From a virus, in IMG/VR virus record IMGVR_UViG_3300050343_000230, positions 13,500 through 77,499 of that record: DNA of 64,000 bases; one strand, 5' to 3'. The position numbers were made by a program, and so were the translations under genes. Below the pieces are notes generated by a model. It searched no databases, had not been told where the DNA came from, and saw only the letters and a list, made by a program, of their open reading frames with translations. Position 1 is the first letter of the stretch. Every line of letters starts with the position of its first letter. Shown piece after piece: positions 153 to 63,974 of this stretch.

Positions 153-850
153 TGGATTTAGCAGGTAAATTGATGGGCGGACTTAAATCTGTTGCAGGAG
201 CAGGTTTAAATTTATTGCCAGACAGAATCAATTTGTTTGGTCGTTACTTGACAGGTGTCGGTAATTCTAATTTGCAATTAGATCGTTCTACTGAACAATC
301 CTTAATCAATGCAACTGAAAAACCTCCTGTCTCTATGGGAATGGTACGTAGTTGGCCAGATCAAAGAACTGCAATAGAAGGTGATCTTTCTAAAAGCAAG
401 ATGGTAGAAAGCCCAGTGGTTGCAGCAGGCCCAGGCATTCCAACCTCTGGTCCAACGATGCCATATATGAGTGGTGATCAAGTAGCTTCTCAAACACTCG
501 GACGCTTTAATGCAGAAGTGACTCCAACCACTGTTCGTGTTAAAGATACTTATGACATGGTCAATGAATCAGAAGATCCTGATTTAGTTAGCGGTCAATT
601 CCAACCAGGCAAAGCGTATAGAACTTTGCAAGGAGCTTTTGATCCGACAAAAATTTATCATCCAAGGATTGATCAACTACAAGATATCAGCCATTTACTA
701 AAACCTGAAGAAAAAGATTTTGGTGCTTACATGCGCGAGGTGGGTAAAGGCACAACAAGAAGTCCCTTAACAGATGTGGCTCGTGCTGCCATGTACGCAT
801 TACCTGTTCAATTTCAACCGTATGAAATTGATTACACGATTCAACGCTAA
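152..850 (+). CDS. hypothetical protein
   Basis: 232-aa ORF, translationally coupled within the operon. Confidence 0.7.
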   Translation: MDLAGKLMGGLKSVAGAGLNLLPDRINLFGRYLTGVGNSNLQLDRSTEQSLINATEKPPVSMGMVRSWPDQRTAIEGDLSKSKMVESPVVAAGPGIPTSGPTMPYMSGDQVASQTLGRFNAEVTPTTVRVKDTYDMVNESEDPDLVSGQFQPGKAYRTLQGAFDPTKIYHPRIDQLQDISHLLKPEEKDFGAYMREVGKGTTRSPLTDVARAAMYALPVQFQPYEIDYTIQR

Positions 851-852
851 CC

Positions 853-1062
853 ATGGCAGACAAAGCAATCCAATCTGACGGTACGACCAAACGTTACCTC
901 CCCAAGAAAGCATGGGCTTCTCTTTCCAAAGAAGAAAGGGAAGATACTGACCGCAAGAAACGAGAGGGATCTCGTAAAGGAAAACAATTTGTCGGTAACA
1001 CAGAGAAAGCAAAGAAAGCTGGTAAAGCTGCTAGGATGTATAAAAGTAAGGCTGGTAAATAA
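853..1062 (+). CDS. small basic hypothetical protein
   Basis: K/R-rich 69 aa (RYLPKKAWASLS); TAATG coupling to the next gene. Confidence 0.7.
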   Translation: MADKAIQSDGTTKRYLPKKAWASLSKEEREDTDRKKREGSRKGKQFVGNTEKAKKAGKAARMYKSKAGK

Positions 1063-4453: not shown

Positions 4454-5617
4454 GTGTTTTTAGATAACGACTTTCCTAAGATTTTAGGTGCGGAACTATA
4501 CCGTCCGCATCCCGCTTATGTCTGTGAAATGGCTGTCGAGCCTGTAGTCGTACATGACTTCACCTCGCAGCCCGGCCAGACCGTGCAGCTGGATCGCTAT
4601 AAGTTCTGGGGAACTCCTGGTACTAAGGATTCACGCGAGCGTATTGCTGACCAGACTATTGGTACAGCTAATAGCCGTAACATCACGAAGGAGAAAGTCC
4701 TCGTGGTGCTTAAGGAATACACCGGCCCTGCGGACCCAGGTGATCCTACCCAGCCTTCAACCTTTAAGATTGCTCGTGAGACCCTGGTCACCGCGCAGCG
4801 TTTGCTGCTCGACACTGGCAACTTGAACATGTTCCACCAGTCAATCGGTAGCTTGACGCTGCTTGATGACTATCGTCGTTGGCGTGACCGCGTCTTCATT
4901 GACGAACTTGCAAAAGCAGAAGCACAAGGTGCAGCTTCTTCAAGCCAAGGCGGTTATTACTTCGCTGGTGGTAAAGGTAAAGATGGTACTGGCCGTATTT
5001 CTTATACAGCTGCTGAGTACACCGCACAAGTACAACAGTTCTCTGTTCGTACCGACCTTCTCGAAGTTGTAAAAGATCTTCGTAAGCGCAACGTACCTAC
5101 ATTTGCTGATGGTCTGTATCGCTGTATTTGCGATCCTACCTTCATGATGCACTTGCGTCGTGACGAAGATTTCCGTGAGATCGCTCGCTACGCAGGCAAT
5201 CCTGGACAAGGCATGTACATGGCTAACCCCATGATGCCTAACAACTCCAGTTTCTACATGGGACCACAAGCTGGTCAGGGCTACTTCCTGGCTGGTGAAC
5301 CTGTGATGCCTACTGGCGTTCAGTTTGAAGGCGTTAAGTTCTTTGAGTCAACCAACTTCCCAAATAAGAGTGTAACCACCTCATTTGATGCGGGTGCTAA
5401 CTACGCTTCTGAAGAAGTTGCACAAGGTTACTTCTTCGGTCCTCAGTCTGTTGGTGTTGGTATTGGCGGTCCTAACGCACAAGTACTCATTAACAACAAT
5501 GATGACTTCTCTCGCTTTATCATCCTGATTTGGCAGCTCTATGCTGGTTTCGAGGTCTTGAACAAAGACTTCATCACTACTGCATTCAGCTACCTCTCCG
5601 ATGACGGCGTAGTCTGA
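4454..5617 (+). CDS. major capsid protein
   Basis: 387 aa, GTG start after GGAGG, strongly biased codon usage, C-terminal DFSRFIILIWQLYAGFEVLN typical of HK97-fold/N4-gp56-like capsids, follows the scaffold. Confidence 0.75.
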   Translation: MFLDNDFPKILGAELYRPHPAYVCEMAVEPVVVHDFTSQPGQTVQLDRYKFWGTPGTKDSRERIADQTIGTANSRNITKEKVLVVLKEYTGPADPGDPTQPSTFKIARETLVTAQRLLLDTGNLNMFHQSIGSLTLLDDYRRWRDRVFIDELAKAEAQGAASSSQGGYYFAGGKGKDGTGRISYTAAEYTAQVQQFSVRTDLLEVVKDLRKRNVPTFADGLYRCICDPTFMMHLRRDEDFREIARYAGNPGQGMYMANPMMPNNSSFYMGPQAGQGYFLAGEPVMPTGVQFEGVKFFESTNFPNKSVTTSFDAGANYASEEVAQGYFFGPQSVGVGIGGPNAQVLINNNDDFSRFIILIWQLYAGFEVLNKDFITTAFSYLSDDGVV

Positions 5618-44252: not shown

Positions 44253-44983
44253 CCACCAGAAATCGCATTCCTAACTACTTTATCTCGTTGCGAGAAAAAT
44301 AGGGAATGTGATAACCAAGTATTGTTAGATGTTGCAACTGCGTCCGTACCCAGTTCAATCGCATGAATGCTACCCCACTTGTCTTCTTCACCTGGGGGAT
44401 GTGGAGGACAGAAGGTTTGTACATTGCCATATTTTTGAGCACAGTAACTGAAGTGAATGTCTTCTCCGTTATCCCACGTGTAAGGCTTCTCCCTCCAAAG
44501 ATGAGATAAGCATTCACGATTAAAGAACCAAGCGTGTCCAACAAGATCAACACGTTCTGTTTCTTGATTTTGCCCAGGCCAACCAGAGCGTGTGTGGTTT
44601 TCATATCTAAAACTATTTAATGTGACACCAGCTGAACCAAGAATAGGAGTTTGATAACCTTCTTCTTCTAGCTTGCAGTAAGTACCGAGACAGTTCTCAA
44701 ACCATTCTGGCCCAGGAATCGTGTCATCATCAAACATTGCAATGTATTTAGTGTCAGCTAAGAGCGCCCCTGCGAATCGTCCGAAGAATTTGAAATTATA
44801 ACTACAGTCAATAACCCTGTCGATATCAAGATACTCAAGGCAAAGGTCACTGTTATCAGCATGCTCATTAACCCATACCCAAATTTCTTTCGGTGGGAAT
44901 GTCTGGTTGCGCAGAGCCTCAATTTGTCTCGCTAGATTCTGAGGTCTGCGATACAGGTTAAGGATAACCGTTACGTCAAACAT
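44222..44983 (-). CDS. glycosyltransferase family 2 (GT-A)
   Basis: VTVILNLYRR, FDDD, GEDIHFS. Confidence 0.85.
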   Translation of the reverse strand: MFDVTVILNLYRRPQNLARQIEALRNQTFPPKEIWVWVNEHADNSDLCLEYLDIDRVIDCSYNFKFFGRFAGALLADTKYIAMFDDDTIPGPEWFENCLGTYCKLEEEGYQTPILGSAGVTLNSFRYENHTRSGWPGQNQETERVDLVGHAWFFNRECLSHLWREKPYTWDNGEDIHFSYCAQKYGNVQTFCPPHPPGEEDKWGSIHAIELGTDAVATSNNTWLSHSLFFSQRDKVVRNAISGGWKTVKSVTL

Positions 44984-51357: not shown

Positions 51358-51394
51358 AACTGGGCCTTACACGCGTAACTAGCGTTGCCCAGTT
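51358..51394 (-). repeat. structured intergenic element family I, copy A
   Basis: AACUGGG-CA-ACGC-loop-GCGU-GUAAGG-CCCAGUU. Confidence 0.75.
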
Positions 51395-51410
51395 GAATGA
51401 TCAGTATAGA

Positions 51411-52310
51411 TCAGAAGGGTGCGTCGTCATCAGCAGACGCTGGAAGATCTGGTAAAGCCTGTGCTGCATTGACTTCTACGAGTTCAGCCATGCTTTCATT
51501 AGCCTTGACCCATGGATCTAAAGCTGGGACAGGAGACGGTGGTGTAGGTGCAGAAGGTGCAGGAGCGATTGCATCTTGATGTGGTGATTCATTCTGCATG
51601 GTCTGGCCACCCCACAAAGAGGTGGGCATAGACCCTGCATTTATAGTGGTGCTAGGTTTCACCTCACTAGATACACCAGACTTAGGAGCAAGTGTCATCT
51701 TGTTGACTTGAATTTTGGTTTGACTTTTTTGTTCACCGCTTGCTTTATCTACCCATGCATCGGTAACTAAACGCCCACATATTGTGAGGCCAGTACCTTT
51801 ATGGGTGAAATCACATAGCAGTTGTGCTTGGTTGTAACGATCATCTGCTTTGTTAATTGCATAAAGATTAAACAAATCAGCTTGTTGTTTGCCTGTATTA
51901 ACAGACAATGTTTGATTCGTAATCATATAACCAGAGTCAGTACAACGGAATGACCTGGAATCTGATTGATCTACGTCACGAATACAACGACCGCCAAGGA
52001 TAATCTCATTGACAATGCCAAATGTTTCGTGGCTTACTGCATAGATTGATCCACCATGAATGGTATGCTCCCTGGTTTTAAGATCATGGCGTAGTGTGCC
52101 ACCGGCAATAAACAAAGTGCTGTTCTGCTTTACAGTAGAAAGCACTCTTGCCTTATCATCCTTGCCATAGACATGTACTGTGACAGGAGTTGGTGCTTTA
52201 CCTGACGCTGGAGGTACTAAGCAGTCAATGATTACATTCGTACGCGTCTGGTCAACATAGATCTCTTTAGGATCATTTGATGCTTGGACAGAAAGATAGA
52301 CTTTGTTCAT
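51411..52310 (-). CDS. ssb: single-stranded DNA-binding protein (tandem OB folds)
   Basis: KGTGLTICGRLVTDAWVDKASGEQKS; acidic tail DDDAPF; start MNKVYL. Confidence 0.8.
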   Translation of the reverse strand: MNKVYLSVQASNDPKEIYVDQTRTNVIIDCLVPPASGKAPTPVTVHVYGKDDKARVLSTVKQNSTLFIAGGTLRHDLKTREHTIHGGSIYAVSHETFGIVNEIILGGRCIRDVDQSDSRSFRCTDSGYMITNQTLSVNTGKQQADLFNLYAINKADDRYNQAQLLCDFTHKGTGLTICGRLVTDAWVDKASGEQKSQTKIQVNKMTLAPKSGVSSEVKPSTTINAGSMPTSLWGGQTMQNESPHQDAIAPAPSAPTPPSPVPALDPWVKANESMAELVEVNAAQALPDLPASADDDAPF

Positions 52311-52335
52311 AGCTTGAGAGTTTTGTTCAGAGTAG

Positions 52336-52363
52336 CTGGGACTTACACCCAATGGATGCCCAG
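52336..52363 (-). repeat. structured intergenic element family I, copy B
   Basis: CUGGG-CA-UCCAUUGGG-UGUAAGU-CCCAG. Confidence 0.8.
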
Positions 52364-52368
52364 TTTAA

Positions 52369-54231
52369 TTAATGAGTATCAGCCCAGCAATAGCCAGTCT
52401 TTGCATCACCTTCAATCTTGCAACGGAAACCAAAGAAGTCACCAGCTTCTATGAAAGAACGCAGGACTGTACTAATGATTCCGTCTTCTAGGCCTGGTCT
52501 ACAGGATAGTTGGATCTCGTCATGGATCATGGCGTGTTGATGCCAATCTTCACCATAAACATAGCCATCTAATTCCATATTCTTTTGTACGCCAATGACT
52601 ACCTGTTTCATTAACACTGCACCAGCTGATTGCAACAATGAGTTCAGTGCTTGGTATTCACTACGGCAATACAATGGCCTGCGGTCGAGGGCCAACAAAT
52701 GCCCTCGATCCAGCAGGCTTTTAGTTAGTGAGTCTTTGAGTTCTTGAAGAGCTGGTACTCCAGAATAGAAGGATTCGATAGCAGCTTTTCCGAGAGCTTT
52801 AAGTCGCTCGTTATCTTTTTCTGTAGCATCGATAATACTACCCGCCTTAGCATGTCCGCAGCCATAAAGAATCCCATATAGAAGACGTTTACTAATGTCC
52901 CGTGTGGCAACTCCGAACATGCGTTGATTGTATGTATGGATGTCTTTAGTTTCATCGATTACTACATCACCATATTGTCCATCATCCCATAAAGCTAAAT
53001 ATCCCGCTAGACACCTAAGCTCCAAAGCTTTAGCATCAGCACCGATGAGAACCCAATCATCAGGAGCATGGAATAAAGAACGGCATTCCTTTCCGTAAGG
53101 AGAATAAACAGCAGGAATTTGTGCCGTGTTGGGATTTCTGTGGCTACATCTTCCGGTGATGCATCCATTGGTGACCACATCACCATGCATGTATCCATCT
53201 TTGGAAACCAACTTGAGCCAACCGTTCTTACCATCTTTGATTTGACCGAGCCGTTTCTTAAGTAACATGTACTCAGCAAGAGGTTTAGCCTCAGGATATG
53301 GAAGGGCCTCAAGCACATCATCATTAAGGATTGGATTTCCTTTTTCAGTTTTGTGTTCAGGTTTCCATCCATACTTGGCAGTGAAACGATCAATAAGTTG
53401 TTGTCTGGAACCAGGGTTGAATTCTTCAGTGCGTACCTTTTTGAATGGGACTCCTTTGACATAGCCTCGTTTAGTGTTGTTTACTTTGGGTGTGAACCAT
53501 TCCTCATGTTGAATAGGAGGAAAGATTTCTTTTAGTTTAAGTTCTAGTTCTTGTTTCTTAAATTCAAGTTCATCCACAAGATTAAGACATTCATCAATAT
53601 CAAAAGGAAAGCCTGATCTAATTTGTCGCTCAATGGCTTGAGCGAAGTCATGCTCCAATCGATAAGCCGATTGCTTAATGTTCTGTCGTTCGATGACTTC
53701 GTATAACTTGGTAGTGACGTTGACATCTTGTTGGCAGTACACAAGCATCTCGGTACTGTATTGAGAAAAGTCTTTGAAATCGATCTTGTTATCACTGAGT
53801 CTGTAGCCCCAGGCTTTAAGACCAGCTGTTCCCCTGAGTCCAGGCGGTACGTTTGCGTAGTGATTGAGATCGAGGTCGTATAACTTTTCTTTTGGCCATA
53901 GTAATCTGGTCGCGACGAGTGTGTCGATGACATGTGGTTTCTTTGTAAAAAAGTTTGGATAAAGTTTTTCTAAGACTGGGATGTCATAAAAGATAATATT
54001 GTGCCCTATAAGAGCATCAGCATTCCTGATAAGCTCAAGAGCACTATCAACATCGTCAGGCCCAAAGCTAAGAGTTTGTTCTCGTGCGACATCATAGATA
54101 ACGACGCAGAAGATTTGAGTAACATCATCATAGAGTCCGTCAGTTTCTAAATCAAAAACGTACCAATTTTCACTTGAAGTACTTGGCTTCAGGCTGAACG
54201 TTGAGTCCTTTATTGGCAAGCTTTTTGTCAT
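52369..54231 (-). CDS. polA: family A DNA polymerase (3'-5' exo + pol, T7-like, Tyr762 type)
   Basis: FDLETDG, GHNIIFYD, DAKALELR, KRLLYGILYG, HDEIQ. Confidence 0.95.
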   Translation of the reverse strand: MTKSLPIKDSTFSLKPSTSSENWYVFDLETDGLYDDVTQIFCVVIYDVAREQTLSFGPDDVDSALELIRNADALIGHNIIFYDIPVLEKLYPNFFTKKPHVIDTLVATRLLWPKEKLYDLDLNHYANVPPGLRGTAGLKAWGYRLSDNKIDFKDFSQYSTEMLVYCQQDVNVTTKLYEVIERQNIKQSAYRLEHDFAQAIERQIRSGFPFDIDECLNLVDELEFKKQELELKLKEIFPPIQHEEWFTPKVNNTKRGYVKGVPFKKVRTEEFNPGSRQQLIDRFTAKYGWKPEHKTEKGNPILNDDVLEALPYPEAKPLAEYMLLKKRLGQIKDGKNGWLKLVSKDGYMHGDVVTNGCITGRCSHRNPNTAQIPAVYSPYGKECRSLFHAPDDWVLIGADAKALELRCLAGYLALWDDGQYGDVVIDETKDIHTYNQRMFGVATRDISKRLLYGILYGCGHAKAGSIIDATEKDNERLKALGKAAIESFYSGVPALQELKDSLTKSLLDRGHLLALDRRPLYCRSEYQALNSLLQSAGAVLMKQVVIGVQKNMELDGYVYGEDWHQHAMIHDEIQLSCRPGLEDGIISTVLRSFIEAGDFFGFRCKIEGDAKTGYCWADTH

Positions 54232-54418
54232 TAGTGTTAATCCATTTAAGAATACTCATAGCACCTGTCTTATTAGGTGAACAGAAAGCTTTAGAAATTT
54301 GAGAAGCACGTTCGATCGGAATCAAATCAAACTTATTCTCTTCAACGTTAGGCTTAATAGCGTGGGGCACCCCGTTAATGTCGGTGGTGATCAGATAAGA
54401 CAATTGAGTTGAGGACAT
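54170..54418 (-). CDS. hypothetical protein
   Basis: 82-aa ORF. Confidence 0.55.
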   Translation of the reverse strand: MSSTQLSYLITTDINGVPHAIKPNVEENKFDLIPIERASQISKAFCSPNKTGAMSILKWINTNDKKLANKGLNVQPEAKYFK

Positions 54419-54470
54419 TTGAAATTAGAATAGCAAAGAAAAAATAGATAGCAAGTAGATAAGTGTCTAC

Positions 54471-55241
54471 TTATTTGTGGTAACCAACAAAGTCACCGTT
54501 GCGTTTGCGATCTTGAATTGATTTGCCTGCAACAGATCCCTTGGGCTGGGTGCCATGGACTAGAAGTGCAAACGGTTGAGTACCAAAACAATGACTGTCG
54601 TCGTGATCAATTGATAGACCCAGACCAGCTGCTTCCATCTGGCTGTAGACCACATGAGAGATGCGAACGAATTTGTGTGCATGACTCTTGAGTAGTGGGT
54701 CAAGGTTGCCACCTTGTGATGCAGTGAGGTAGAAGTTCTCTGGGATCTGGTCGAGGTTATTCAGCCACAGTTGTAGCTGTTTGGTGTAAGCGTAATACTT
54801 ACGAGTTGGATTCTTGCGAGCTACACGTAGCCATGCAAGGAAGTAAAGCTCTGACCAGAAATCTCCTGACTCATGGATACGAACCAGCTCAATCTTAGAC
54901 TTAGGATCTTTGGCGTCAATCGATTGTGTGATTAACATTTGTAACGCTTCAATCTTTTCTACTGGGTTGTTAATAGGCACCATGGTTTCTTTCAACATGT
55001 CCCAGTTGTGCCAACGTGCGGCACGACATTGAGGGCTTCGTGCCTCACTACTAGCAGCAAAGCAACGGTATGGTGCAGCATCAGTGTTGTTTGTCTGTGG
55101 CAGATCTTGGATCTTGCCAGTGACTCGGTCACTGAATGTCTTGCATACACCAGCATTAGGGCATGTGTACCCAGCTGGTAGTGAGAAGATCAGGCGCTTG
55201 CCAAGTTTGGCATTGCCTGTGGAAAACTTGAGTAGTGTCAT
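54471..55241 (-). CDS. GP88-like phage protein
   Basis: FSLPAGYTCPNAGVC...CFA, RIHESGDFWS, YAYTK. Confidence 0.7.
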   Translation of the reverse strand: MTLLKFSTGNAKLGKRLIFSLPAGYTCPNAGVCKTFSDRVTGKIQDLPQTNNTDAAPYRCFAASSEARSPQCRAARWHNWDMLKETMVPINNPVEKIEALQMLITQSIDAKDPKSKIELVRIHESGDFWSELYFLAWLRVARKNPTRKYYAYTKQLQLWLNNLDQIPENFYLTASQGGNLDPLLKSHAHKFVRISHVVYSQMEAAGLGLSIDHDDSHCFGTQPFALLVHGTQPKGSVAGKSIQDRKRNGDFVGYHK

Positions 55242-55270
55242 TTGATTTTGTGTGGTGTAAGTGAATGGCC

Positions 55271-55306
55271 CCAGGACTTACGCGATGCTCTACTACCGCT
55301 GCCTGG
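55271..55306 (-). repeat. structured intergenic element family I, copy C
   Basis: CCAGG-CA-GCGGU..AUCGC-GUAAGU-CCUGG. Confidence 0.8.
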
Positions 55307-55312
55307 TATAAT
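55304..55312 (+). promoter_or_regulatory. extended -10 promoter for the riboswitch/DUF4278 unit
   Basis: TGG-TATAAT 8 nt upstream of the riboswitch 5' end. Confidence 0.6.
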
Positions 55313-55320
55313 TAATGATA

Positions 55321-55370
55321 CGTTCACCTCTTAAGAGGCGCATAACAACAGGCGTGGAACGGCACCTGTT
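55321..55370 (+). ncRNA. glutamine-II (Downstream-peptide) riboswitch
   Basis: CGUUC-A-CCUC(UUAA)GAGG-CGCA..AACAGG-CGUG-GAACG-GCA-CCUGUU: P1, P2 and 3' pseudoknot, upstream of a YRG peptide. Confidence 0.85.
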
Positions 55371-55386
55371 TTATCGGAGAACTCCA

Positions 55387-55530
55387 ATGACCCTTACTTA
55401 TCGTGGTCTGACTTACGAATCTCAGTCTGGTTTGCTTACTCATTTATTGAGCAAGTATAAGAAAGAGTTACGTCGTGAGAAAGAACTTAAGAAAGATCAA
55501 GAAAGAATGGCGGCAGGTCCAGCTATTTAA
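55387..55530 (+). CDS. DUF4278 'downstream peptide' (GifB/IF17 N-terminal-like), 47 aa
   Basis: MTLTYRGLTY motif; GGAG SD; directly after the riboswitch. Confidence 0.85.
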   Translation: MTLTYRGLTYESQSGLLTHLLSKYKKELRREKELKKDQERMAAGPAI

Positions 55531-55659
55531 TAAGATAAAGAAGTAGACAGTACTGTCTACGTTTCATGTACACTTATTCATGAAGCTTTACTCGCTACCG
55601 GAAGATAGCCAGATCAGGTTAGGCGCGTGAGCCACTGAATCTTCCATTACTGGATCTAG

Positions 55660-55863
55660 CTAGCACCAGGGCCAACTTAGTTCAAGGTCTTCTTGTTCCC
55701 ACGCGGCGGGATCATAAGGACGTTGTGCTACGTAGTCTTTAAACAGGCGTTTCATTTCTTCAAATGGAACGTCTATTTCTTTGGCGATTACTGCAACATT
55801 AGTCTGTCCTTGGTAGATCAGATCAAGTGCTTGTTCCGTAGTGATTACAGTCATGTGCTTCAT
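55660..55863 (-). CDS. hypothetical HTH-like protein
   Basis: NVAVIAKEIDVPFEEMKRLF. Confidence 0.5.
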   Translation of the reverse strand: MKHMTVITTEQALDLIYQGQTNVAVIAKEIDVPFEEMKRLFKDYVAQRPYDPAAWEQEDLELSWPWC

Positions 55864-56335
55864 TGGTCATGTACTCAGGCAAGAACCAGTCACAACGGTC
55901 TTGACCTCTGTTGTTATGTTCACATTGTAGACAAGCGATAGTTTCTTGAGGTTCAGTTGTATTTGTTTGTGGTGCAATGTTGCCTTGTTCAAATACATGT
56001 TCAGGTACTTCTAGTGTTACGACTCTGTAGTCACAGTTTTGACAGTGCTTACTGCGTCGTCTGTAGTTCTGTTTAGTGATACGAGTAGTAATCACTTTAA
56101 GAAAGTGTTGGTTGCATACAGGACAAGCTTCAGTAAAGCCTTTCCTTGCAGCAGTGATACGTTCAGATTCTGTTTTAACAACAGCAGGTTTGCGATGTAC
56201 CTTGGATGCACATACAGTCGAGCAATAAGTTTTAATACGACCGCGTCTGATGTTGTTATTGTGTTGCCATTTTGGACGTGTAAATAACACGCCACATTTG
56301 ACACACGTTAACTCAACAGGAGGAACTCTTTTCAT
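55823..56335 (-). CDS. multi-Zn-finger protein with an NrdR-like zinc ribbon
   Basis: CPVC...VITTR...RRRSKHCQNCDYRVVTLE. Confidence 0.6.
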   Translation of the reverse strand: MKRVPPVELTCVKCGVLFTRPKWQHNNNIRRGRIKTYCSTVCASKVHRKPAVVKTESERITAARKGFTEACPVCNQHFLKVITTRITKQNYRRRSKHCQNCDYRVVTLEVPEHVFEQGNIAPQTNTTEPQETIACLQCEHNNRGQDRCDWFLPEYMTNEAHDCNHYGTST

Positions 56336-56984
56336 TGGGCCACATTGATTGTGAGATGATTGGGAATTGTTTGGTGAAGATTACTTTGCAAGCATCAGCA
56401 ATCTCTTTGTGTTCTTGTTGCGTACCATTAGAAGTACGCAGATCTATGTAATGCATCCATGATCGGAGTGTACCGCTCATGAATAATTTTGTTGGTGAGG
56501 CTAAAGGCAATAAAAATCTTGCTGATTCCTTTGCAATACCATCAGATAACATCTCTTGATATAGATGTTCAGCGTCTTCAAAGAGACAGCTGGTTCGACG
56601 GTAGTACTCAGCAAGCTTGGACTTGCCTATCTTTTCAACTAGATCATCATTAGAGTTCTGCCTGTTCTTGATGTCTTGTGAACGTAGATGAGGAACAGTT
56701 GCATTACCAATTGCATTGGTGTTTGCATACCGTTGAGAGAATTCTTGGAAGCTAAAGCTTCTATGTCTCAGTATCTGTGGTGAGATACCACGTGTTGTAT
56801 GGATTTCTAAGCACATGGATGCCATCTCAAATGGACTCCAGTGCTTATGTTTGATTAGATAAGACAGTAGACGTGGACTGGTAGTTGTGTTCTTTGCATT
56901 GGCAGGGGCGCTGACGCGAGCCATCTCTACGATGAGAGGCTCTGCCATTTGTGTTGCCCATACCAATGAAACAGTTGGTGTCAT
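56313..56984 (-). CDS. thyX: FAD-dependent thymidylate synthase
   Basis: HWSPFE, RHRSFSFQEFSQRY motif, ESARFLLP; start MTPTVSL. Confidence 0.95.
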   Translation of the reverse strand: MTPTVSLVWATQMAEPLIVEMARVSAPANAKNTTTSPRLLSYLIKHKHWSPFEMASMCLEIHTTRGISPQILRHRSFSFQEFSQRYANTNAIGNATVPHLRSQDIKNRQNSNDDLVEKIGKSKLAEYYRRTSCLFEDAEHLYQEMLSDGIAKESARFLLPLASPTKLFMSGTLRSWMHYIDLRTSNGTQQEHKEIADACKVIFTKQFPIISQSMWPNEKSSSC

Positions 56985-57073
56985 AATTAGTATTGAAAAA
57001 TCCCCGGTTGTTCCAAGACCAGGGATGTGGTCCACTTCATCGCCGGGGGTTGATCAACAACCCCTAGCAGATG

Positions 57074-57430
57074 TTAAGCAGTAGCTGCTTCTGTGTCAAT
57101 AGTGTCAGCAGTAGATGCCTCAGTGATCTTGTCGATCATTGCGGACATCATTACTGCATTCTCCTGAGTCTTCTTGAAGAATGCATTGACTCGTTCAGCG
57201 GACATGGTATGAATCATGCCACCGGATTCAATGTACTTCCAGCTGCCATCAGGTTGTGGTTCACCGTTGGTAACAGCAAGCTTCTCGCTGTTACGAATGT
57301 ACTTGATCTGTAGATTGTGATGATCAGTTAGACCTTCACGATCAATCCAAGTAAGGCCAAGGTTGTACCGTTGCTCGCCATCCATGTGTGCATGGGGCTG
57401 AGGAATGAGGTGCTTGATTGCTCCGAACAT
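57074..57430 (-). CDS. hypothetical protein
   Basis: 118 aa after the tRNA, CA-rich leader. Confidence 0.65.
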   Translation of the reverse strand: MFGAIKHLIPQPHAHMDGEQRYNLGLTWIDREGLTDHHNLQIKYIRNSEKLAVTNGEPQPDGSWKYIESGGMIHTMSAERVNAFFKKTQENAVMMSAMIDKITEASTADTIDTEAATA

Positions 57431-57456
57431 GATGCTGTGTGATGTAATGGGACGGT

Positions 57457-57533
57457 TGGTAGGAGTGGCGGGATTCGAACCCGCACTGTAGCGATTTTAA
57501 GTCGCTTGCCTCTGCCAATTGGGCTACACTCCC
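57457..57533 (-). tRNA. trnL: tRNA-Leu(UAA), 77 nt, short variable loop, encoded CCA
   Basis: GGGAGUG/CACUCCU acceptor, AGCGA-CUUAAAA-UCGCU anticodon arm, GCGGG-UUCGAAU-CCCGC T arm, ACCA end. Confidence 0.95.
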
Positions 57534-57536
57534 GTT

Positions 57537-57592
57537 CTAGGGCTTACACTTTCGGTGTCTCCTGGAGGCGGCGTTACCTACCGGATGCCTAG
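57537..57592 (-). repeat. structured intergenic element family I, copy D
   Basis: CUAGG-CA-U...GUGUAAGC-CCUAG, ending 3 nt before the tRNA 5' end. Confidence 0.7.
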
Positions 57593-57598
57593 CTGTTA

Positions 57599-59368
57599 TC
57601 AGGACTGTAGCTGAAGCTCGCGGACATTCAATGCCATCTTAAGTTGATGTTCAACAATGGCACGATCAATGTCGTTGAGTCTGGCATTGCCAACGTCTGC
57701 TATCTGAGAGACGTGCATTACACCGTTGTCAACTGTTAGTTGCACAGTGTAACGAGGCTTGTTATCAATCATGACCAGTACGATCATGTGTCTGTACTTC
57801 TTAATACCGTCTGCATAGCTCTGGGAGCCGACGCAGTTACGTACTGCGCGGCCCCAATGAGCGAGCATGTGTGTATCAAGTGGTTGCAAGAACGTATAGG
57901 TATTAACTACCTCAGGTTCTGCCAGTGTGATGTCACCTTTGAGTGGTACTTTGATTGGTTCAGGGAATAGTTTCTGGGGTAATGAAGTCAATGGATTGTC
58001 TAGTTTCCATGTCTCTGCCATGAGGTGATCATGCCATTCAGTCATGCGCCAACGTCTTGGCTTAAGCTTGGCTGGATCTGTACCAGCTGCAATACATTGG
58101 GTAAGCATGGCGTATGTATCTCTCCATTCGTACGTATACATGTGTACGTTACCTGTTCTGTTGTCAATTCTTTGACGTGACTTATATTCTTTAGATGTTT
58201 CTATTGCTTTGGCATATTGCTTGCATAACATATTCAAGAAGGATTCAACAGGTAAGTTGGCACGTAACCATTCGTATCCTGTCTCAGAATGATACCCATG
58301 CATCTCGATACGAGATAGGTAACCATATCTTGAATGTAAGTAGTTGATATCCATGTCACGCCATATGCACTTGACGTGGCATACAGACTCAATGAATATC
58401 TGTAGTTCGCTATAAGGTTGTATCAATAGGTCTAAGTTAAATTGTTGTTTAGCATTCTCTGTGTCATATATAGTTTGTAGTTTATCCATTGCAGTGACTA
58501 CCATGCGACGGAACCATTTAGATTCCCATACGTCTGTTAGCCATGGATTCTTATAGTGATTAGAGATCTTTTGCAATACATCATTGATGTCATGTACGTA
58601 AGAACTCTCTATAATGTTTAACCATTTAGGACGTGTGTGACTATGTGTTAAGAGCTTGGATAAGCCTGTGCCTTTATTAGCTACGCGTTCAAATACATTA
58701 CGTGAGAAGCCACCTTTGTAAGTAGGTATCTTGCTTAGTAAGTATGCTTCCCATTTAGTAACAGCTTTGTATATAACGCTTCCATTACCCCATGATGAAA
58801 TGTAATGATTATTGCGATCAATGCCTTTCCAATAACTAGATGAGTAACCATTTTGGATTGCTACATCGTTAACTAACAATGTATCTCTGTACCAATATGA
58901 CTTACCATCTTTAACGTGTTGCATTTCTCTTCGTTTGTATTCATTATCTTCATCTGATTTAGATGATTGAAGCATGCAGGTGTTACATGCCTTACGTCCT
59001 GTTGCTGTGTCCTTATAGGTATAGCTCAGTCCGTAGTAATAAGTATCTTCTTCTTTCTGTGGTAACCATGCGGCTACCCATAGTTGTTTGTAGTAGTAGA
59101 TAACTGCTACTGGCTGAGGTTCTTCACCGAACACTGGTCGTGTGATAAGACGTACCTTACCGTTTGCAACTGACGTGGAGTTGATGTAGTCAACTGCCTC
59201 TTGCCATGTTCGATCATTAACAATGTGAGTTGGTATGAGGTTAGATGGGTTGCCATTGGGATACTTAGCTTTCTTACTAGTAGTAGTTGTCTTTGGTTGT
59301 AGTCTCTTGAGCGTCTTGTCATAGGACATGACTTCAAGTTGAAGGTTGGAAGGAAGATTGAATCGCAT
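57599..59368 (-). CDS. PcfJ-like domain protein
   Basis: WHDHL...LAHWGRAVRNCVGSQSY...YTVQL C-terminal pattern. Confidence 0.65.
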   Translation of the reverse strand: MRFNLPSNLQLEVMSYDKTLKRLQPKTTTTSKKAKYPNGNPSNLIPTHIVNDRTWQEAVDYINSTSVANGKVRLITRPVFGEEPQPVAVIYYYKQLWVAAWLPQKEEDTYYYGLSYTYKDTATGRKACNTCMLQSSKSDEDNEYKRREMQHVKDGKSYWYRDTLLVNDVAIQNGYSSSYWKGIDRNNHYISSWGNGSVIYKAVTKWEAYLLSKIPTYKGGFSRNVFERVANKGTGLSKLLTHSHTRPKWLNIIESSYVHDINDVLQKISNHYKNPWLTDVWESKWFRRMVVTAMDKLQTIYDTENAKQQFNLDLLIQPYSELQIFIESVCHVKCIWRDMDINYLHSRYGYLSRIEMHGYHSETGYEWLRANLPVESFLNMLCKQYAKAIETSKEYKSRQRIDNRTGNVHMYTYEWRDTYAMLTQCIAAGTDPAKLKPRRWRMTEWHDHLMAETWKLDNPLTSLPQKLFPEPIKVPLKGDITLAEPEVVNTYTFLQPLDTHMLAHWGRAVRNCVGSQSYADGIKKYRHMIVLVMIDNKPRYTVQLTVDNGVMHVSQIADVGNARLNDIDRAIVEHQLKMALNVRELQLQS

Positions 59369-59393
59369 TTGATTTGATGTGGTGTAAAGGAAA

Positions 59394-59427
59394 AACCTGG
59401 GACTTATACCGTTTGGATGCCCAGGTT
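59394..59427 (-). repeat. structured intergenic element family I, copy E
   Basis: AACCUGGG-CA-UCCAAACGG-UAUAAGU-CCCAGGUU. Confidence 0.8.
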
Positions 59428-59432
59428 ATTAG

Positions 59433-59717
59433 TTAGTCAATGTCAAGTTCCCATTCAAGATCTAGTGGATCAATGAATTGGATCTTGTCGTGTTCAGTAC
59501 CATGTACCGGTGGTGGAAGTTCGTCTGGCTCTAGGACAAAGCTCGCGCTACAAAGCGCTGGGCCATACTCTGCAGGATGCGCAGCGTCAGCTGGATGGTA
59601 GGTAGCAGGAATTGTCTGCACCATGTCAGCAATGTTGGCAACAGCAATCCAGTGAGACGTTCCATCGGGTTCAACAAGGTCAAGGTAAATGTTGTCAATT
59701 GAGATGATGTTGGTCAT
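59433..59717 (-). CDS. hypothetical protein
   Basis: PAEYGPALC motif, 94 aa. Confidence 0.65.
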   Translation of the reverse strand: MTNIISIDNIYLDLVEPDGTSHWIAVANIADMVQTIPATYHPADAAHPAEYGPALCSASFVLEPDELPPPVHGTEHDKIQFIDPLDLEWELDID

Positions 59718-59911
59718 GAGTTCTCCAATAAGATGATTGCAGCTTGACGTAAGCCGTTGGTCTTACCGCAGCCTATGAGCCATGCATCAGAACCTACTTT
59801 ATGCTTGTAGGTTTCGTCATGTGATGCATCTGCTGCGGCAGAGATGATGAGATACTTCTCCCATACTTTGTCACGGTAGATGCCAGGAAGTTCAGTGATT
59901 GATGAAGTCAT
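59714..59911 (-). CDS. hypothetical protein
   Basis: start reassigned to MTSSITEL. Confidence 0.55.
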   Translation of the reverse strand: MTSSITELPGIYRDKVWEKYLIISAAADASHDETYKHKVGSDAWLIGCGKTNGLRQAAIILLENS

Positions 59912-59936
59912 TTGATTAGATGTGATGGATGGACAT

Positions 59937-59963
59937 GGGTAGTTTAAAGACATACCCAGGTCT
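59937..59963 (-). repeat. 27-nt H-type pseudoknot, family II, copy a
   Basis: AGAC-CU-GGGUA-U-GUCU-UUAAAC-UACCC. Confidence 0.8.
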
Positions 59964-60033
59964 AGTTCATTGGTATCTATAAGTCTTAATAGTTGTGGTC
60001 GTGGCTGTTCCCAGGGGGTGCAGGGGGACTGAC

Positions 60034-60309
60034 TTACTGGTCGTCAGACCACATGGAGTTGTCTTCTTTGTACTCAGGTAGATCTGGTACTTGGAAGGAG
60101 GATATATCTGGTAGGTCATAGCGTTTAGCTAAGCCCGTACCAGGTAGTGATGTGGTTCCTTTTAGGTGGCCAGTCTCAACATTGATGTTGATTGTTTGGC
60201 TGAAGGGACCAATCTTAAAGGTCTTGGTGTAGGACTTGACGCCACGCTCGGTGATATTAAAGCCGAGGATGGACTTGTCAAAGTTGAATGCTGATTTCTT
60301 ACGTGTCAT
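60034..60309 (-). CDS. hypothetical protein (DUF4236-like)
   Basis: FKIGPFSQTINI...TTSLPGTGL. Confidence 0.5.
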   Translation of the reverse strand: MTRKKSAFNFDKSILGFNITERGVKSYTKTFKIGPFSQTININVETGHLKGTTSLPGTGLAKRYDLPDISSFQVPDLPEYKEDNSMWSDDQ

Positions 60310-60464
60310 GTTGAACGCTTCCGCATTGCAGGGTTTAGATCACTGAGTGCAATTAACTGGCAGATAGTTTCTATCCTTTGATAAATTTGCGTGTCAGTTG
60401 ATTGAAGCTCTAGCACCTTGTCTTCAAGATACTCAATTCTTTCTAGTAGTTCTCTCTTTTTCAT
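60306..60464 (-). CDS. hypothetical protein (52 aa)
   Basis: MKKRELLERIEYLEDK...; ATGA-coupled at both ends. Confidence 0.5.
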   Translation of the reverse strand: MKKRELLERIEYLEDKVLELQSTDTQIYQRIETICQLIALSDLNPAMRKRST

Positions 60465-60524
60465 ACCAAGTCTTCAAAAGCTGCTTTCTTACGTGTCATG
60501 TTGAATGATTTTGTAGAGGTGTAA

Positions 60525-60728
60525 CTATGAAAGGATGTCAGGGATGATGTGGTCAGGATCTGACTCATCCATGTTGGACATGATGAATCGTTCACCGTCT
60601 GGTGACATAAAGCCACCGATGAACTTGGCACCTGCCTTGTCAGCAGCTGCTTTCATCTGAGCAACAATCTGCATAGCACGTAGCTTGTCATCAGTAGGTA
60701 GTGAGTCTGGAACTTGGAGGTCATTCAT
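60525..60728 (-). CDS. hypothetical protein
   Basis: 67 aa. Confidence 0.6.
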   Translation of the reverse strand: MNDLQVPDSLPTDDKLRAMQIVAQMKAAADKAGAKFIGGFMSPDGERFIMSNMDESDPDHIIPDILS

Positions 60729-60746
60729 TTGATTGATTAGCGTAGC

Positions 60747-61031
60747 TTATGAGTTTGTGGTTGTTTGCATAAAGGCCTTGAAGCGTTTCGCTACGTCCCT
60801 TTGTGCATCCATTTGGTCATGGGCTCTCTTCTCTGCTTCTGCAGAGGTGATCTCTTCATTCATCATGAAGGCTGTTACTAAGCCTGCAAACTCTTCGTTC
60901 TCTTGTTCGTCGAGCCAGTCGTCTAGTAGCAATGGTGCTGAGTAATCATCACCATAGTTCTGTGGAGATGGATCGAAGTCGTCCAAGTAGGCTTGGTACT
61001 CTTTGAGTTGCTTGTCTGTAAAGGATGCCAT
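60747..61031 (-). CDS. acidic hypothetical protein
   Basis: start MASFTDKQ after the family I element. Confidence 0.6.
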   Translation of the reverse strand: MASFTDKQLKEYQAYLDDFDPSPQNYGDDYSAPLLLDDWLDEQENEEFAGLVTAFMMNEEITSAEAEKRAHDQMDAQRDVAKRFKAFMQTTTNS

Positions 61032-61049
61032 GTGATGTAGTGATAGGAA

Positions 61050-61083
61050 ACCCTGGGACTTATGCATTGTAGCTGCCCAGGGT
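61050..61083 (-). repeat. structured intergenic element family I, copy F
   Basis: ACCCUGGG-CA-GCUACAAUGC-AUAAGU-CCCAGGGU. Confidence 0.8.
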
Positions 61084-61113
61084 ATTAGTTATTTGTACTG
61101 TTACTAGATGTGT

Positions 61114-61485
61114 CTAGCAATAGTAAGGCCGCTCGGTGGGATAGTCCAAGGCATATCCCGAACCGAGTGTTGCGTGAAGGGCGGTAAAGCCTCTGCTGTC
61201 ATCAATAGGTGGTTGTTCGTAGAGACAGAGGTCTTGGGTGAGGTCGAGTAGTCGGTTGATACATTGCTTCTTCGTGAAGATGAAATGGGTTTGGTACGCT
61301 TGCCCGACTTCGTACCACCAGCCGCCTTCTTCCGGTCCACCAAATTGTTGGTTGACGTTGTGGAGTTTGATGCTGGTTGGTTCTGCACCGTCCCAGTCGG
61401 TTGCCCAGTTGTACTGGTCGATCCAGTATCGGGCTGCTCCGGTGCGTGGATAGCGGTTGATGTAGTCCTGGAGGAGTGAGGCCAT
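61114..61485 (-). CDS. conserved phage hypothetical protein
   Basis: FGGPEEGGWWY...YPTERPYYC. Confidence 0.7.
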   Translation of the reverse strand: MASLLQDYINRYPRTGAARYWIDQYNWATDWDGAEPTSIKLHNVNQQFGGPEEGGWWYEVGQAYQTHFIFTKKQCINRLLDLTQDLCLYEQPPIDDSRGFTALHATLGSGYALDYPTERPYYC

Positions 61486-61558
61486 AGGAGGATTGAAAGT
61501 AAAGCAATGATGTGATCGATGACGTGAACCTCGACAGGTTCAACTGTGGGCTTGAGTT

Positions 61559-61735
61559 TCAAAGGAGAGCCTCAGGGTGATTGTCAATGAACTGTTCGTA
61601 GACATGGTCTACTTCTGGTTCGTCCATTTCCTCACGCATTGCGTTCTCTTGTTGATAAGCAATGTCTGCAAGGATGTCAAGGTCGTCGGCCTTGATCTCT
61701 TGCATGAGGCGATGGAGTTCGGACATGGTTGACAT
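61559..61735 (-). CDS. acidic hypothetical protein (58 aa)
   Basis: MSTMSELHRLMQEIKADD...; read manually, follows a family II element. Confidence 0.6.
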   Translation of the reverse strand: MSTMSELHRLMQEIKADDLDILADIAYQQENAMREEMDEPEVDHVYEQFIDNHPEALL

Positions 61736-61764
61736 GATGTTGAATTGAATAATGTGATGGGACA

Positions 61765-61791
61765 GGACAGTTTAAGGACATGTCCAGGTCC
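61765..61791 (-). repeat. 27-nt H-type pseudoknot, family II, copy b
   Basis: GGAC-CU-GGACA-U-GUCC-UUAAAC-UGUCC. Confidence 0.8.
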
Positions 61792-61952
61792 ATAGATTAG
61801 CGTTTGAGTAGTCTGTAAAGCCACCTGGCTATTGCATTTCTTAACCCTGGTGACTTATAAGAGTCAAGGGTGCAAAAGTTATATTTAGAAATGCGGAAGG
61901 TGTGTTGTGCCATGTGTCTTGCAAATAGAATTATGCGTTTGGAAAGTGTTAC

Positions 61953-62207
61953 TTAGAAGCTAATGAAAGGAGCTTGAATAGTGTTGCTTGGTGCTGGTGA
62001 TTGGACATAGCGTTGGCAATAAGCCATGACTTGTCCATCGTTATAGCCTGCATTCTGTAGTTGATTGATACAGATACAGGCCTGAGTACCAAGCTGAGAT
62101 ATACAGTAGTTCATAACAGGACTAGCCTGAGAACTGGAGTAGTACTGAGCCTTGGCTTCCAACCCTGCGGTTGTGGCGACAAGGAGGGGGAGGAGGAACT
62201 TGATCAT
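61953..62207 (-). CDS. signal-peptide-bearing hypothetical protein
   Basis: MIKFLLPLLVATTAGLEAKAQ. Confidence 0.5.
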   Translation of the reverse strand: MIKFLLPLLVATTAGLEAKAQYYSSSQASPVMNYCISQLGTQACICINQLQNAGYNDGQVMAYCQRYVQSPAPSNTIQAPFISF

Positions 62208-62211
62208 TAAC

Positions 62212-62424
62212 TTAGAAGCGGATCTTCTTGTTGATGTAGCTACTGTCATTGTCGTAGCTAGTGGTCTTAGTAGTTGTGTCTTCCTCATACTCTTTAGAGT
62301 CTCGGAATGCTTCACGTACTACTAATGCACAGCCAGTGGCAACGATGAAGGGTGCTGCACCGACCATGGCTGCGATACCAGTAAGACCGGCACCAAGTGC
62401 GATTGCTTGTGACTTGTTGTTCAT
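62212..62424 (-). CDS. small membrane protein
   Basis: hydrophobic N-half. Confidence 0.55.
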   Translation of the reverse strand: MNNKSQAIALGAGLTGIAAMVGAAPFIVATGCALVVREAFRDSKEYEEDTTTKTTSYDNDSSYINKKIRF

Positions 62425-62609
62425 GATAGTTGTAGATCGTCTTGAAAGAATTGGTTTAAAACGTAACGCATCTTTATATCATCGGAGTTAGTAAATTCTT
62501 TGCTCCAATGAGTAACAATGCATTTCGTCTCCTGACATTCAATAGTCAGTCGTGTCTCATTAGGTAACTCAACTGTTAGATCGTTACCTGGTTTGATGTC
62601 AATGAGCAT
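62421..62609 (-). CDS. hypothetical protein
   Basis: 62 aa after family I copy G. Confidence 0.55.
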   Translation of the reverse strand: MLIDIKPGNDLTVELPNETRLTIECQETKCIVTHWSKEFTNSDDIKMRYVLNQFFQDDLQLS

Positions 62610-62621
62610 AGAGGTGTGAGC

Positions 62622-62665
62622 AAGAGGTAGGACTTACACACCTGGCGGGGTGATGCCTATCTCTT
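62622..62665 (-). repeat. structured intergenic element family I, copy G
   Basis: AGAGAUAGG-CA-UCACC..GGUG-UGUAAGU-CCUACCUCU. Confidence 0.8.
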
Positions 62666-63050: not shown

Positions 63051-63130
63051 ATGCCCCCTCGTGTAGAGAGTGAGGAGGCAATAACTGACCAGGGCCTTCG
63101 AGGCCCCAGCTCACGCTTGGTGATCAGTTG
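63051..63130 (-). repeat. three-way-junction + hairpin element, family III, copy i
   Basis: AACUGAUC...GGGGCC-UCGAA-GGCCCU-GGUCAGUU-AU-UGCC..GGCA. Confidence 0.75.
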
Positions 63131-63288
63131 TCAGGTGAGATACGCTTGGCAACCTTCCTGCGAACGTTGTCAATTTCGTATGTCACTTGTGCTTTGCTTG
63201 GCACACCTGGTGCCTTAGCTTTGCTGATACCATCTGCTGTGATATGCAGAAGGTTGGATAGATTCTTGCGGATGTTGAGTGCAGTCAT
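63124..63288 (-). CDS. basic hypothetical protein (54 aa)
   Basis: MTALNIRKNL...ISPDN*; read manually. Confidence 0.6.
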   Translation of the reverse strand: MTALNIRKNLSNLLHITADGISKAKAPGVPSKAQVTYEIDNVRRKVAKRISPDN

Positions 63289-63565: not shown

Positions 63566-63635
63566 ATGCCACGGAGGTGTGGCAATAACTGACCCCGGCA
63601 TTGCACCGGGGATGACCGCGTTTACGGATCAGTTG
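63566..63635 (-). repeat. three-way-junction + hairpin element, family III, copy ii
   Basis: AACUGAUC-CGU(AAAC)GCG...CCGG-UGCAAUG-CCGG-GGUCAGUU-AU-UGCC..GGCA. Confidence 0.75.
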
Positions 63636-63925
63636 GTAGTGATGACTAGACGATGGATGAACTTCAGCTGGTACTTATCACCCACCTTGTTGGCATAGAC
63701 ATGCCAGGTGAATGGTACGTAGTCCTCTGCATCTGTTGGTCCATCCATTGTTGTTAGGAAGGACTTGAACATCTGCATGACATCAGTGATTGTCTTGCCA
63801 TAGAACTGGAGCTGACACGTTGTGATCGTGACAGATCTTGTGTTGGTTGTTGCAATCTTGTCGCTGAGTTCATAACACTTGGTCAAGAACTCTTCGCACT
63901 TGATGTCTTCTGATGTGTAATTCAT
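63629..63925 (-). CDS. hypothetical protein
   Basis: 98 aa ending ITTN*. Confidence 0.6.
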   Translation of the reverse strand: MNYTSEDIKCEEFLTKCYELSDKIATTNTRSVTITTCQLQFYGKTITDVMQMFKSFLTTMDGPTDAEDYVPFTWHVYANKVGDKYQLKFIHRLVITTN

Positions 63926-63947: not shown

Positions 63948-63974
63948 GAGAAGTTTAAAGACTTACTCAGGTCT
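63948..63974 (-). repeat. 27-nt H-type pseudoknot, family II, copy c
   Basis: AGAC-CU-GAGUA-A-GUCU-UUAAAC-UUCUC. Confidence 0.75.

Follow-up and report, generated by a model that had tools for sequence, protein, structure and literature searches.

What is the role of a hairpin that recurs seven times between the genes of one arm of a phage genome, each time around the same internal loop? The question arises from a 64,000-nt stretch of viral DNA, hereafter the window, which comprises bases 13500-77499 of the 77.5-kb single-contig IMG/VR record IMGVR_UViG_3300050343_000230 (98% complete for the whole record according to CheckV). On sequence evidence the record is an S-EIV1-like cyanophage; its family A DNA polymerase (PolA) had 63% identity to the counterpart in Synechococcus phage S-EIV1, the sole close cultured relative, and a megablast search of a 12-kb region against cultured phages gave no match. 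Positions 48-64 kb of the window constitute a leftward (minus-strand) early/replication arm with small open reading frames (ORFs), a PcfJ-like gene, tRNA-Leu(UAA), and genes for ThyX, an NrdR-like zinc-ribbon protein, GP88, PolA, SSB, and DUF5895. The seven hairpins, which we call Family I, lie inside 11.3 kb of this arm, are all intergenic, and are without exception encoded on the minus strand, in the same sense as the genes beside them.

All seven copies followed a common plan of basal stem, GGCA, apical stem and loop, RTAAGNCC, and closing strand of the basal stem. The inner two pairs of the basal helix were invariably G-C, and the CA of the 5' strand was invariant opposite R-U-A-A-G-N of the 3' strand, beneath a variable apical stem-loop of 10 to ~40 nt. 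RNAfold paired the C of this CA with the G of UAAG and left N bulged. Basal stems differed among copies (CUGGG/CCCAG, CCAGG/CCUGG, CUAGG/CCUAG, and UAGG/CCUA), and minimal copies contained 4-5 basal and 3 apical pairs, for a total of 7-8 bp. A preliminary description of the window had listed the same closing-stem variants and proposed a family of seven with a fixed internal loop, covarying stems, and a free apex. We recovered all seven where it had located them, with copy 7 spanning 62627-62660 once the fold spans were checked, and the family proved real, in related phages and far beyond.

Within the window, the bare pattern GGCA-N9-39-TAAGNCC had 9 matches against a chance expectation of 3.0, and complementary flanks were found in the seven hairpins only. 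A covariance model trained on 24 minimal 28-nt copies returned exactly the seven copies from the window (E = 5e-9 to 0.2), zero matches from the remaining 13.5 kb of the phage genome, and two copies from phage S-EIV1. Conservation in relatives was evident from six viral contigs recruited via PolA (61-74% identity), each with 1-6 copies on the gene strand. Scanning IMG/VR with the pattern yielded 82 model-aligned matches, 70 of them distinct. In these 70 copies 90.5% of cells were paired vs 81% in shuffles, and 40 changes were double-sided vs 7 in shuffles, a signal that was lost on sliding the partners. A second IMG/VR scan, in which only the loop and a UCC/GGU apex were fixed and the basal stem was left free, recovered at least 120 loci. 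The flanks of its 95 distinct copies still paired, using about a dozen different sequences that included CUG/CAG, UUG/CAA, CUU/AAG, AAG/CUU, GAA/UUC, CCG/CGG, and AGA/UCU. The structure is under selection.

Motif-bearing IMG/VR contigs numbered more than 120 and spanned GC contents of 33% to 67%. When 596 Gb of prokaryote genomes were scanned with the same pattern, 17 matches appeared, nearly all missing the basal pairing and thus attributable to chance, and a stricter pattern had zero matches there. We conclude that the motif is genuine, occurs widely, and is all but confined to viral contigs. Occurrence in phages across this range of GC content, and not in cells, is consistent with a function that depends on nothing beyond the fold or machinery common to all hosts. 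No family in Rfam 15 matched the motif, including in permissive scans of short stretches. A literature search on the motif string returned unrelated matches only, the S-EIV1 papers made no mention of the hairpin, and blastn of the 32-nt minimal hairpin and of the leader of the capsid-gene copies (below) against cultured phages found nothing relevant. The motif itself is new to the searchable RNA databases and the literature found, while repeated intercistronic phage hairpins are a known kind of signal.

On the window alone, the plus strand folded equally well or better in 5/7 copies, so the mixed G-U polarity that the preliminary description had reported does leave the strand ambiguous on those data. 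We used a symmetric criterion, with G-U and A-C treated alike, on 76 distinct copies from many contigs. Apical helices contained 16 G-U and 3 A-C oppositions (p = 0.004) and basal flanks 5 and 2, respectively. Among 21 distinct tetraloops, 4 were GNRA and 2 were UNCG, compared with ~1 expected. The commonest arrangement by far, at 97 loci, had both flanking genes close by and on the same strand as the motif. Because G-U exceeds A-C, GNRA/UUCG loops are enriched, and the motif nearly always lies in sense orientation between co-directional genes, Family I is a sense-strand RNA structure. The antisense or single-stranded DNA role that had earlier been kept as an alternative is countered by the same counts, loop enrichment, and strictly sense orientation.

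The G-U bias and the RNA-type tetraloops likewise argue against a DNA-level element, whether a phage promoter (an N4-type hairpin or a Syn5-related sequence) or a single-stranded DNA hairpin recombination site such as T4 PeSL or integron attC, and we consider such an element very improbable. It would suit the conservation of the motif ~30 nt ahead of starts, where it heads the same gene units in related phages, as well as the wide variation in copy number among relatives and the cassette-like replacement. The Syn5 promoter, ATTGGGCACCCGTAA followed by G, also shares GGGCA..GTAAG with the motif in the same order. A Syn5-type promoter is nevertheless unsupported, because a T7-like RNA polymerase (PF00940) was not found in this phage and five relatives by a search that had no positive control, the spacer between the conserved halves varies over 10-40 nt, and the covariance model does not match Syn5. 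Nor does the geometry fit a sigma-70 -10 element; sigma-70-like sites numbered 22 against 26.6 expected, with none at the hairpins, and no recombinase was linked to the motif. In Syn5 (L129), GGGCA..GTAAG of the motif recurs in both RNA-polymerase promoters, at 4929-4946 and 44797-44814 (ATTGGGCACCCGTAAG), and after each of them a hairpin stands where the transcript begins. The likeness is probably a coincidence.

One group of carriers does combine the motif with a promoter. In AT-rich contigs (L108:2272-2360, L125:5530-5625, L069:9425-9512, and also L094, L123, L010, and L049) the 3' arm of the apical stem together with R forms TTGACA, and TATAAA lies 17 nt on, in a near-consensus TTGACA-17-TG-TATAAA. 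The conserved GTAAGTCC of this group falls in the promoter spacer, outside the promoter elements, which again speaks against a DNA-level role; conserved GUAAGUCC sits in the spacer as well and so does not belong to the promoter elements. Downstream is a gene for an HNH/I-HmuI-like homing endonuclease, and the bases immediately ahead of its ATG are complementary to the apical loop and covary with it. By analogy, this arrangement looks like expression that is silenced in read-through transcripts and activated from the gene's own promoter, as for T4 I-TevI. Family I shares with T4 PeSL cassettes, which combine an early promoter and a stem-loop, and with I-TevI-type regulated endonuclease genes a stem-loop that recurs between genes, at the borders of cassettes, and a plastic early region. 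It differs from them in that the S-EIV1-like copies have no sigma-70-type promoter and the conserved part is an RNA internal loop.

Position relative to genes was the second consistent property. The upstream ORF most often ended 2-5 nt ahead of the helix, and the next ATG lay 25-34 nt past the helix in 78/184 cases. At 18 loci the upstream ORF ran through the hairpin and ended at the motif's own UAA, although there was no frame preference outside the VIPR group (below) that would mark this UAA as an in-frame back-up stop. The leader between hairpin and start in S-EIV1-like phages was nearly free of G and had no Shine-Dalgarno sequence.

The window copies conform to this layout, and the genes that follow them are those named in the preliminary description (DUF5895, SSB, GP88, tRNA-Leu(UAA), the PcfJ-like gene, and two small ORFs). 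Copy 1 (51358..51394, minus strand, as are all that follow) lies 16 nt past the SSB stop (51411) and ~30 nt ahead of the DUF5895 ATG (51328), with a basal stem of ACUGGG/CCCAGU and a loop of CA / GUAAGG (covariance model 23.2 bits; folding free energy -15.9, z -2.7). Copy 2 (52336..52363) has the minimal 28-nt form (45.8 bits, E 5e-9); it lies 5 nt past the PolA stop (52369) and 25 nt ahead of the SSB ATG (52310). Copy 3 (55271..55306), with a CCAGG/CCUGG stem, is 29 nt ahead of the GP88 ATG (55241) and has a plus-strand glutamine-II riboswitch cassette on its upstream side in place of a same-strand gene. Copy 4 (57537..57592) combines a CUAGG/CCUAG stem with a long branched apex and sits 6 nt past the PcfJ-like stop (57599) and 3 nt ahead of the 5' end (57533) of tRNA-Leu(UAA), which is directly 3' of it (57457..57533, minus strand; RF00005, 62.4 bits). 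Copy 5 (59394..59427) is 5 nt past the stop of a 94-amino-acid ORF (59433) and 25 nt ahead of the PcfJ-like ATG (59368), and its basal helix extends to 8 bp (43.6 bits; z -2.9). Copy 6 (61050..61083; 41.9 bits) is 20 nt past a stop at 61104 and ~10-20 nt ahead of a small-ORF ATG (~61040). Copy 7 (62627..62660; 15.8 bits), with a UAGG/CCUA stem, is 3 nt past a stop at 62664 and 17 nt ahead of an ATG at 62609.

The cassette beside copy 3 is an antisense insertion in the minus-strand arm and replaces the gene found upstream of copy 3 in relatives. Its glutamine-II riboswitch (55318-55368, plus strand; RF01704, 40.4 bits against a gathering score of 33) heads a 71-amino-acid ORF (55315-55530, plus strand), and a perfect palindromic terminator-like hairpin follows at 55543-55560.

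A position directly after stop codons is also what would be expected of a hairpin that, as a weak intrinsic terminator, an attenuator, or a pause site, grades transcription over the operon. GNRA and UUCG loops are typical of terminator hairpins, and both were present in Family I. About half of the S-EIV1-like copies had a short U-rich patch 2-5 nt past the stem, and AT-rich contigs showed UUUAU after the hairpin and then the sigma-70-like promoter of the HNH gene. The preliminary description had held that the hairpins have no U-tract and are not ordinary terminators. The second part stood, as 0/7 copies met the terminator-scan criterion, but UUUUU follows copy 5 and UUU follows copy 6. These runs pair with the A-rich stop-codon region upstream and lengthen the basal helix, and the U patch of S-EIV1-like copies mostly pairs in this way. 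High-GC copies were missing a U tract altogether, and the conserved internal loop is foreign to terminators. We therefore regard a terminator as improbable, and the copies ahead of structural RNAs point the same way.

The hairpin lay 3-5 nt ahead of a tRNA in twelve contigs, namely that of the window, ten others with tRNA-Leu(UAA), and one with tRNA-Asn. The latter, in an unrelated 109-kb contig of 39% GC (L171:3451-3556), had the hairpin 5 nt ahead of tRNA-Asn(GUU), so tRNA adjacency is more than the inheritance of one tRNA-Leu locus. At 26 further loci the hairpin came directly after a vipr gene and 6-36 nt ahead of the first GGY-NN vrRNA. In the contigs of this VIPR group (GC ~0.5-0.66) the hairpin followed a ~200-amino-acid gene (phrog_4652) with homologues in Felixounaviruses, and GGY-NN pentamers, in runs of 8-20, came after it together with a structured tail. 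By sequence, the phrog_4652-like gene and the GGY-NN runs match the Vipr protein and vrRNAs that make up the newly described VIPR systems (preprint 10.64898/2026.04.26.720920). As a control, our repeat finder recovered the published layout of one upstream and three downstream vrRNAs in a Felixounavirus. The tRNAs and vrRNAs begin a few bases past the hairpin, too close to it for a separate promoter, so their transcription must pass through it. Such read-through means that the hairpin is neither an efficient terminator nor a sigma-70-type promoter.

The VIPR loci occurred in uncultured high-GC phage contigs (L134:3075-4100, L017:2900-3850, L182:1548-2700, and ~25 others) with the gene order terminase GpA, HNH, Vipr-like (phrog_4652), Family I, two or three vrRNAs, head-tail joining protein, and portal. 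The vrRNAs of these hairpin-bearing loci had GGY-NN runs with a UUCG-capped structured tail, and the vipr ORF often ended at the UAA of the hairpin. The repeat finder showed vrRNA repeats to be absent from the phage of the window, and Vipr was not detected there by a sequence search that had no positive control. The hairpin was absent from isolates with a Vipr homologue (Pseudomonas phage Medea1 and Escherichia phage bumzen).

These loci bear on whether Family I serves as the operator of an RNA-binding protein or endonuclease with sequence specificity, of phage or host, that reads CA/RUAAGN and either makes a Cas6-like basal cut or times translation like the T4 RegA and gp32 operators. Such an operator would suit the invariance of the loop and closing pairs amid variable stems and apex, the several copies per genome ahead of early/replication genes, and the RAMP-family gene that adjoins the hairpin in VIPR loci. 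The T4 gene 32 operator consists of a structured element and then an unstructured leader, an arrangement that Family I recalls. Against this, copies ahead of tRNAs and vrRNAs cannot serve translational control. No candidate protein was common to the unrelated phage groups that carry the motif; Vipr was the only protein family shared widely among motif loci, is confined to one group, was undetected in this phage, and is present in the checked isolates that have no hairpin. The same junctions can also hold a different fold, as described next, which argues against one dedicated reader, and we judge an operator unlikely.

We mapped synteny across the window, four relatives, and S-EIV1. At each of the junctions preceding PcfJ, GP88, and SSB, Family I was present in the window, L002, and L003, a 27-30-nt pseudoknot (GUC..stem..GAC-N-UUAAAC..stem) took its place in L007 and S-EIV1, and L005 was mixed. 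Where a relative had an extra gene at a junction, that gene was upstream of the element, which stayed with the downstream gene. This pseudoknot, Family II, also occurred in the window at 63948-63973, 61762-61790, and 59931-59963 (minus strand), ahead of G-poor leaders, and S-EIV1 contained at least 6 copies reading GUCC..GAC-A-UUAAACU. At the sequence level Family II has a real resemblance to plant-virus coremin (GUCCGAAGACGUUAAACUAC), a small two-helix element with a conserved spacer that stalls Xrn1 and scanning ribosomes (PMC6546385, PMC10520033). Because Family I is interchangeable with this coremin-like pseudoknot, a barrier based on the fold is as good a reading as a loop recognized by a factor. 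Two larger elements, each with hairpins between AACUGAUC and GGUCAGUU, were also present between early ORFs of the window, at ~63570-63640 and ~63060-63135 (minus strand); the preliminary description had called them a tRNA-like family.

We tentatively favour, at somewhat less than even confidence, the reading of Family I as an RNA boundary element between cistrons, one that would define RNA ends and shield them. It is favoured because all contexts fit a boundary element and the replacement fold resembles a known exonuclease roadblock. Under this proposal, Family I would act in cis as a punctuation hairpin in the long polycistronic sense (minus-strand) transcripts of the early/replication arm. 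Each hairpin would close the upstream message and open what follows, whether a tRNA or guide-RNA precursor or, ahead of a gene, a landing pad for ribosomes, namely the G-poor unstructured leader of 18-33 nt up to the next start. The precursor may be cut by RNase P at the tRNA and by other host nucleases elsewhere. The fold, as a physical and/or recognized barrier, would bar 3'-to-5' exonucleases from the message upstream, and might also exclude 5'-to-3' decay, RNase E scanning, or sliding ribosomes from the downstream RNA.

Several observations weigh against a boundary element. The stability of the seven window copies is only moderate (-11 to -16 kcal/mol; z -0.6 to -2.9), and strict invariance of nine loop and closing bases would sooner be expected where a specific factor reads the site than in a generic barrier. 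Family II resembles coremin at the level of sequence, and coremin itself has been tested with eukaryotic Xrn1 and ribosomes only. Ahead of a tRNA or vrRNA, the hairpin would leave the downstream RNA, so that only a 3'-protective or separating role is possible there. The loop invariance could reflect a dedicated reader or a demanding three-dimensional fold; as an example of the latter, Y-GUAA-G could perhaps form a GNRA-like turn. Four marine RNA libraries (shares 0.06-0.16), two of them oligo-dT, were represented by Logan contigs at a depth of ~3-5, which as contigs cannot show ends or strand. Some short contigs bridged copy 2 and one stopped at the 5' base of copy 5, a record too thin to bear on function or habitat. 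A bolder form of the proposal is possible but doubtful, namely that Family I is a new class of roadblock RNA of bacterial viruses, in which a 28-nt fold would be functionally equivalent to, and swappable with, pseudoknots like those of coremin-type exonuclease-resistant RNAs (xrRNAs), and would serve phages of many hosts as general RNA punctuation at message ends, for the release of tRNAs and VIPR guides, and as a stop for nucleases and ribosomes.

Comparison with known systems places the motif among elements of similar logic. Coremin/xrRNA-C is, like Family I, a structured RNA of 28-30 nt with conserved unpaired bases and small helices, in that case one that stops a processive enzyme (PMC6546385, PMC10520033). 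Family I differs in having no YGAD loop, no conserved 10-nt spacer GUUAAACUAC (GUUAAAC), and no hp2, and is a single hairpin with an internal loop. The nearest textbook analogue, the RNase III sites of T7 early mRNA (R0.3, R0.5, R1, R1.1, and R1.3), also consists of repeated intercistronic sense-strand hairpins with an asymmetric internal loop. Cutting at the T7 sites presumably gives one product a protective hairpin and the next a free leader. The Family I helix is shorter than theirs, and phages whose hosts are unrelated share its loop sequence. RNase III substrates have ~20 bp, or about two helical turns, and minimal substrates at least ~11-14 bp. An RNase III processing site was rejected as unlikely because the minimal copies, with their 7-8 pairs, are too short.

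In bordering a guide RNA (between vipr and the first vrRNA at the 26 loci above), Family I also resembles elements of VIPR arrays in which hammerheads are interspersed with the vrRNAs. That other VIPR arrays have hammerhead ribozymes at the boundaries of their vrRNAs (preprint 10.64898/2026.04.26.720920) lends something to the idea of a self-acting RNA, either a very small self-cleaving ribozyme or a ligand-sensing aptamer, as do invariant unpaired bases in a tiny fold that is spread over phages of many hosts. Family I, however, is not a hammerhead, has no sign of self-cleavage, stands at the array head only, and occurs in phages without VIPR. There was no match to an Rfam ribozyme or riboswitch, permissive scans included, and the seven to eleven copies per genome ahead of unrelated genes are unlike a riboswitch. 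No known natural self-cleaving class is as small as 28 nt with 7-8 pairs, and a self-acting RNA appears highly implausible. A kink-turn was also rejected. It needs a 3-nt bulge and tandem sheared G-A/A-G pairs, and with CA on the short strand and RUAAGN on the long strand a tandem GA is impossible. By sequence, the strand order of the loop misfits loop E/sarcin-ricin, the 11-nt tetraloop receptor, the S8 site, and domain IV of the signal recognition particle RNA, which were set aside, as on the same grounds were 16S h27, the 23S H71 loop, the Ro/Y-RNA helix, group II domain 5, and T-box specifier mimicry.

The motif had one more recurrent setting. In a group of contigs with GC ~0.5 (L114:1943-2025, L122:414-495, L102, L079, L164, L166, and others), a single copy lay between a 163-amino-acid gene and the Phage_cap_E major capsid gene. 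It was followed by a second covarying hairpin (UGGUU..AACCA or UGUGU..ACACA), and then by a conserved CAUUUGAAGUC box and GGAG..CUCCCUCCC-AUG. The rightward structural arm of the S-EIV1-like record, outside the window, is headed by an 845-amino-acid ORF (genome bases 796-3333, plus strand), with a 693-amino-acid hypothetical protein at the matching place in S-EIV1. Searches of this ORF against Pfam, PHROG, PDB sequences, and the ESM Atlas gave no lead.

Intercistronic RNA signals of phages have been detailed for only a few coliphages. If Family I is a barrier or a processing mark, xrRNA-like logic would operate in bacteria, and the element would help to explain how cyanophage operons that have no Shine-Dalgarno sequences are divided into separately stable messages. 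Synthetic operons and guide-RNA arrays would also gain a compact part for insulation. Direct testing is possible, since both S-EIV1 and its Synechococcus host are cultured.

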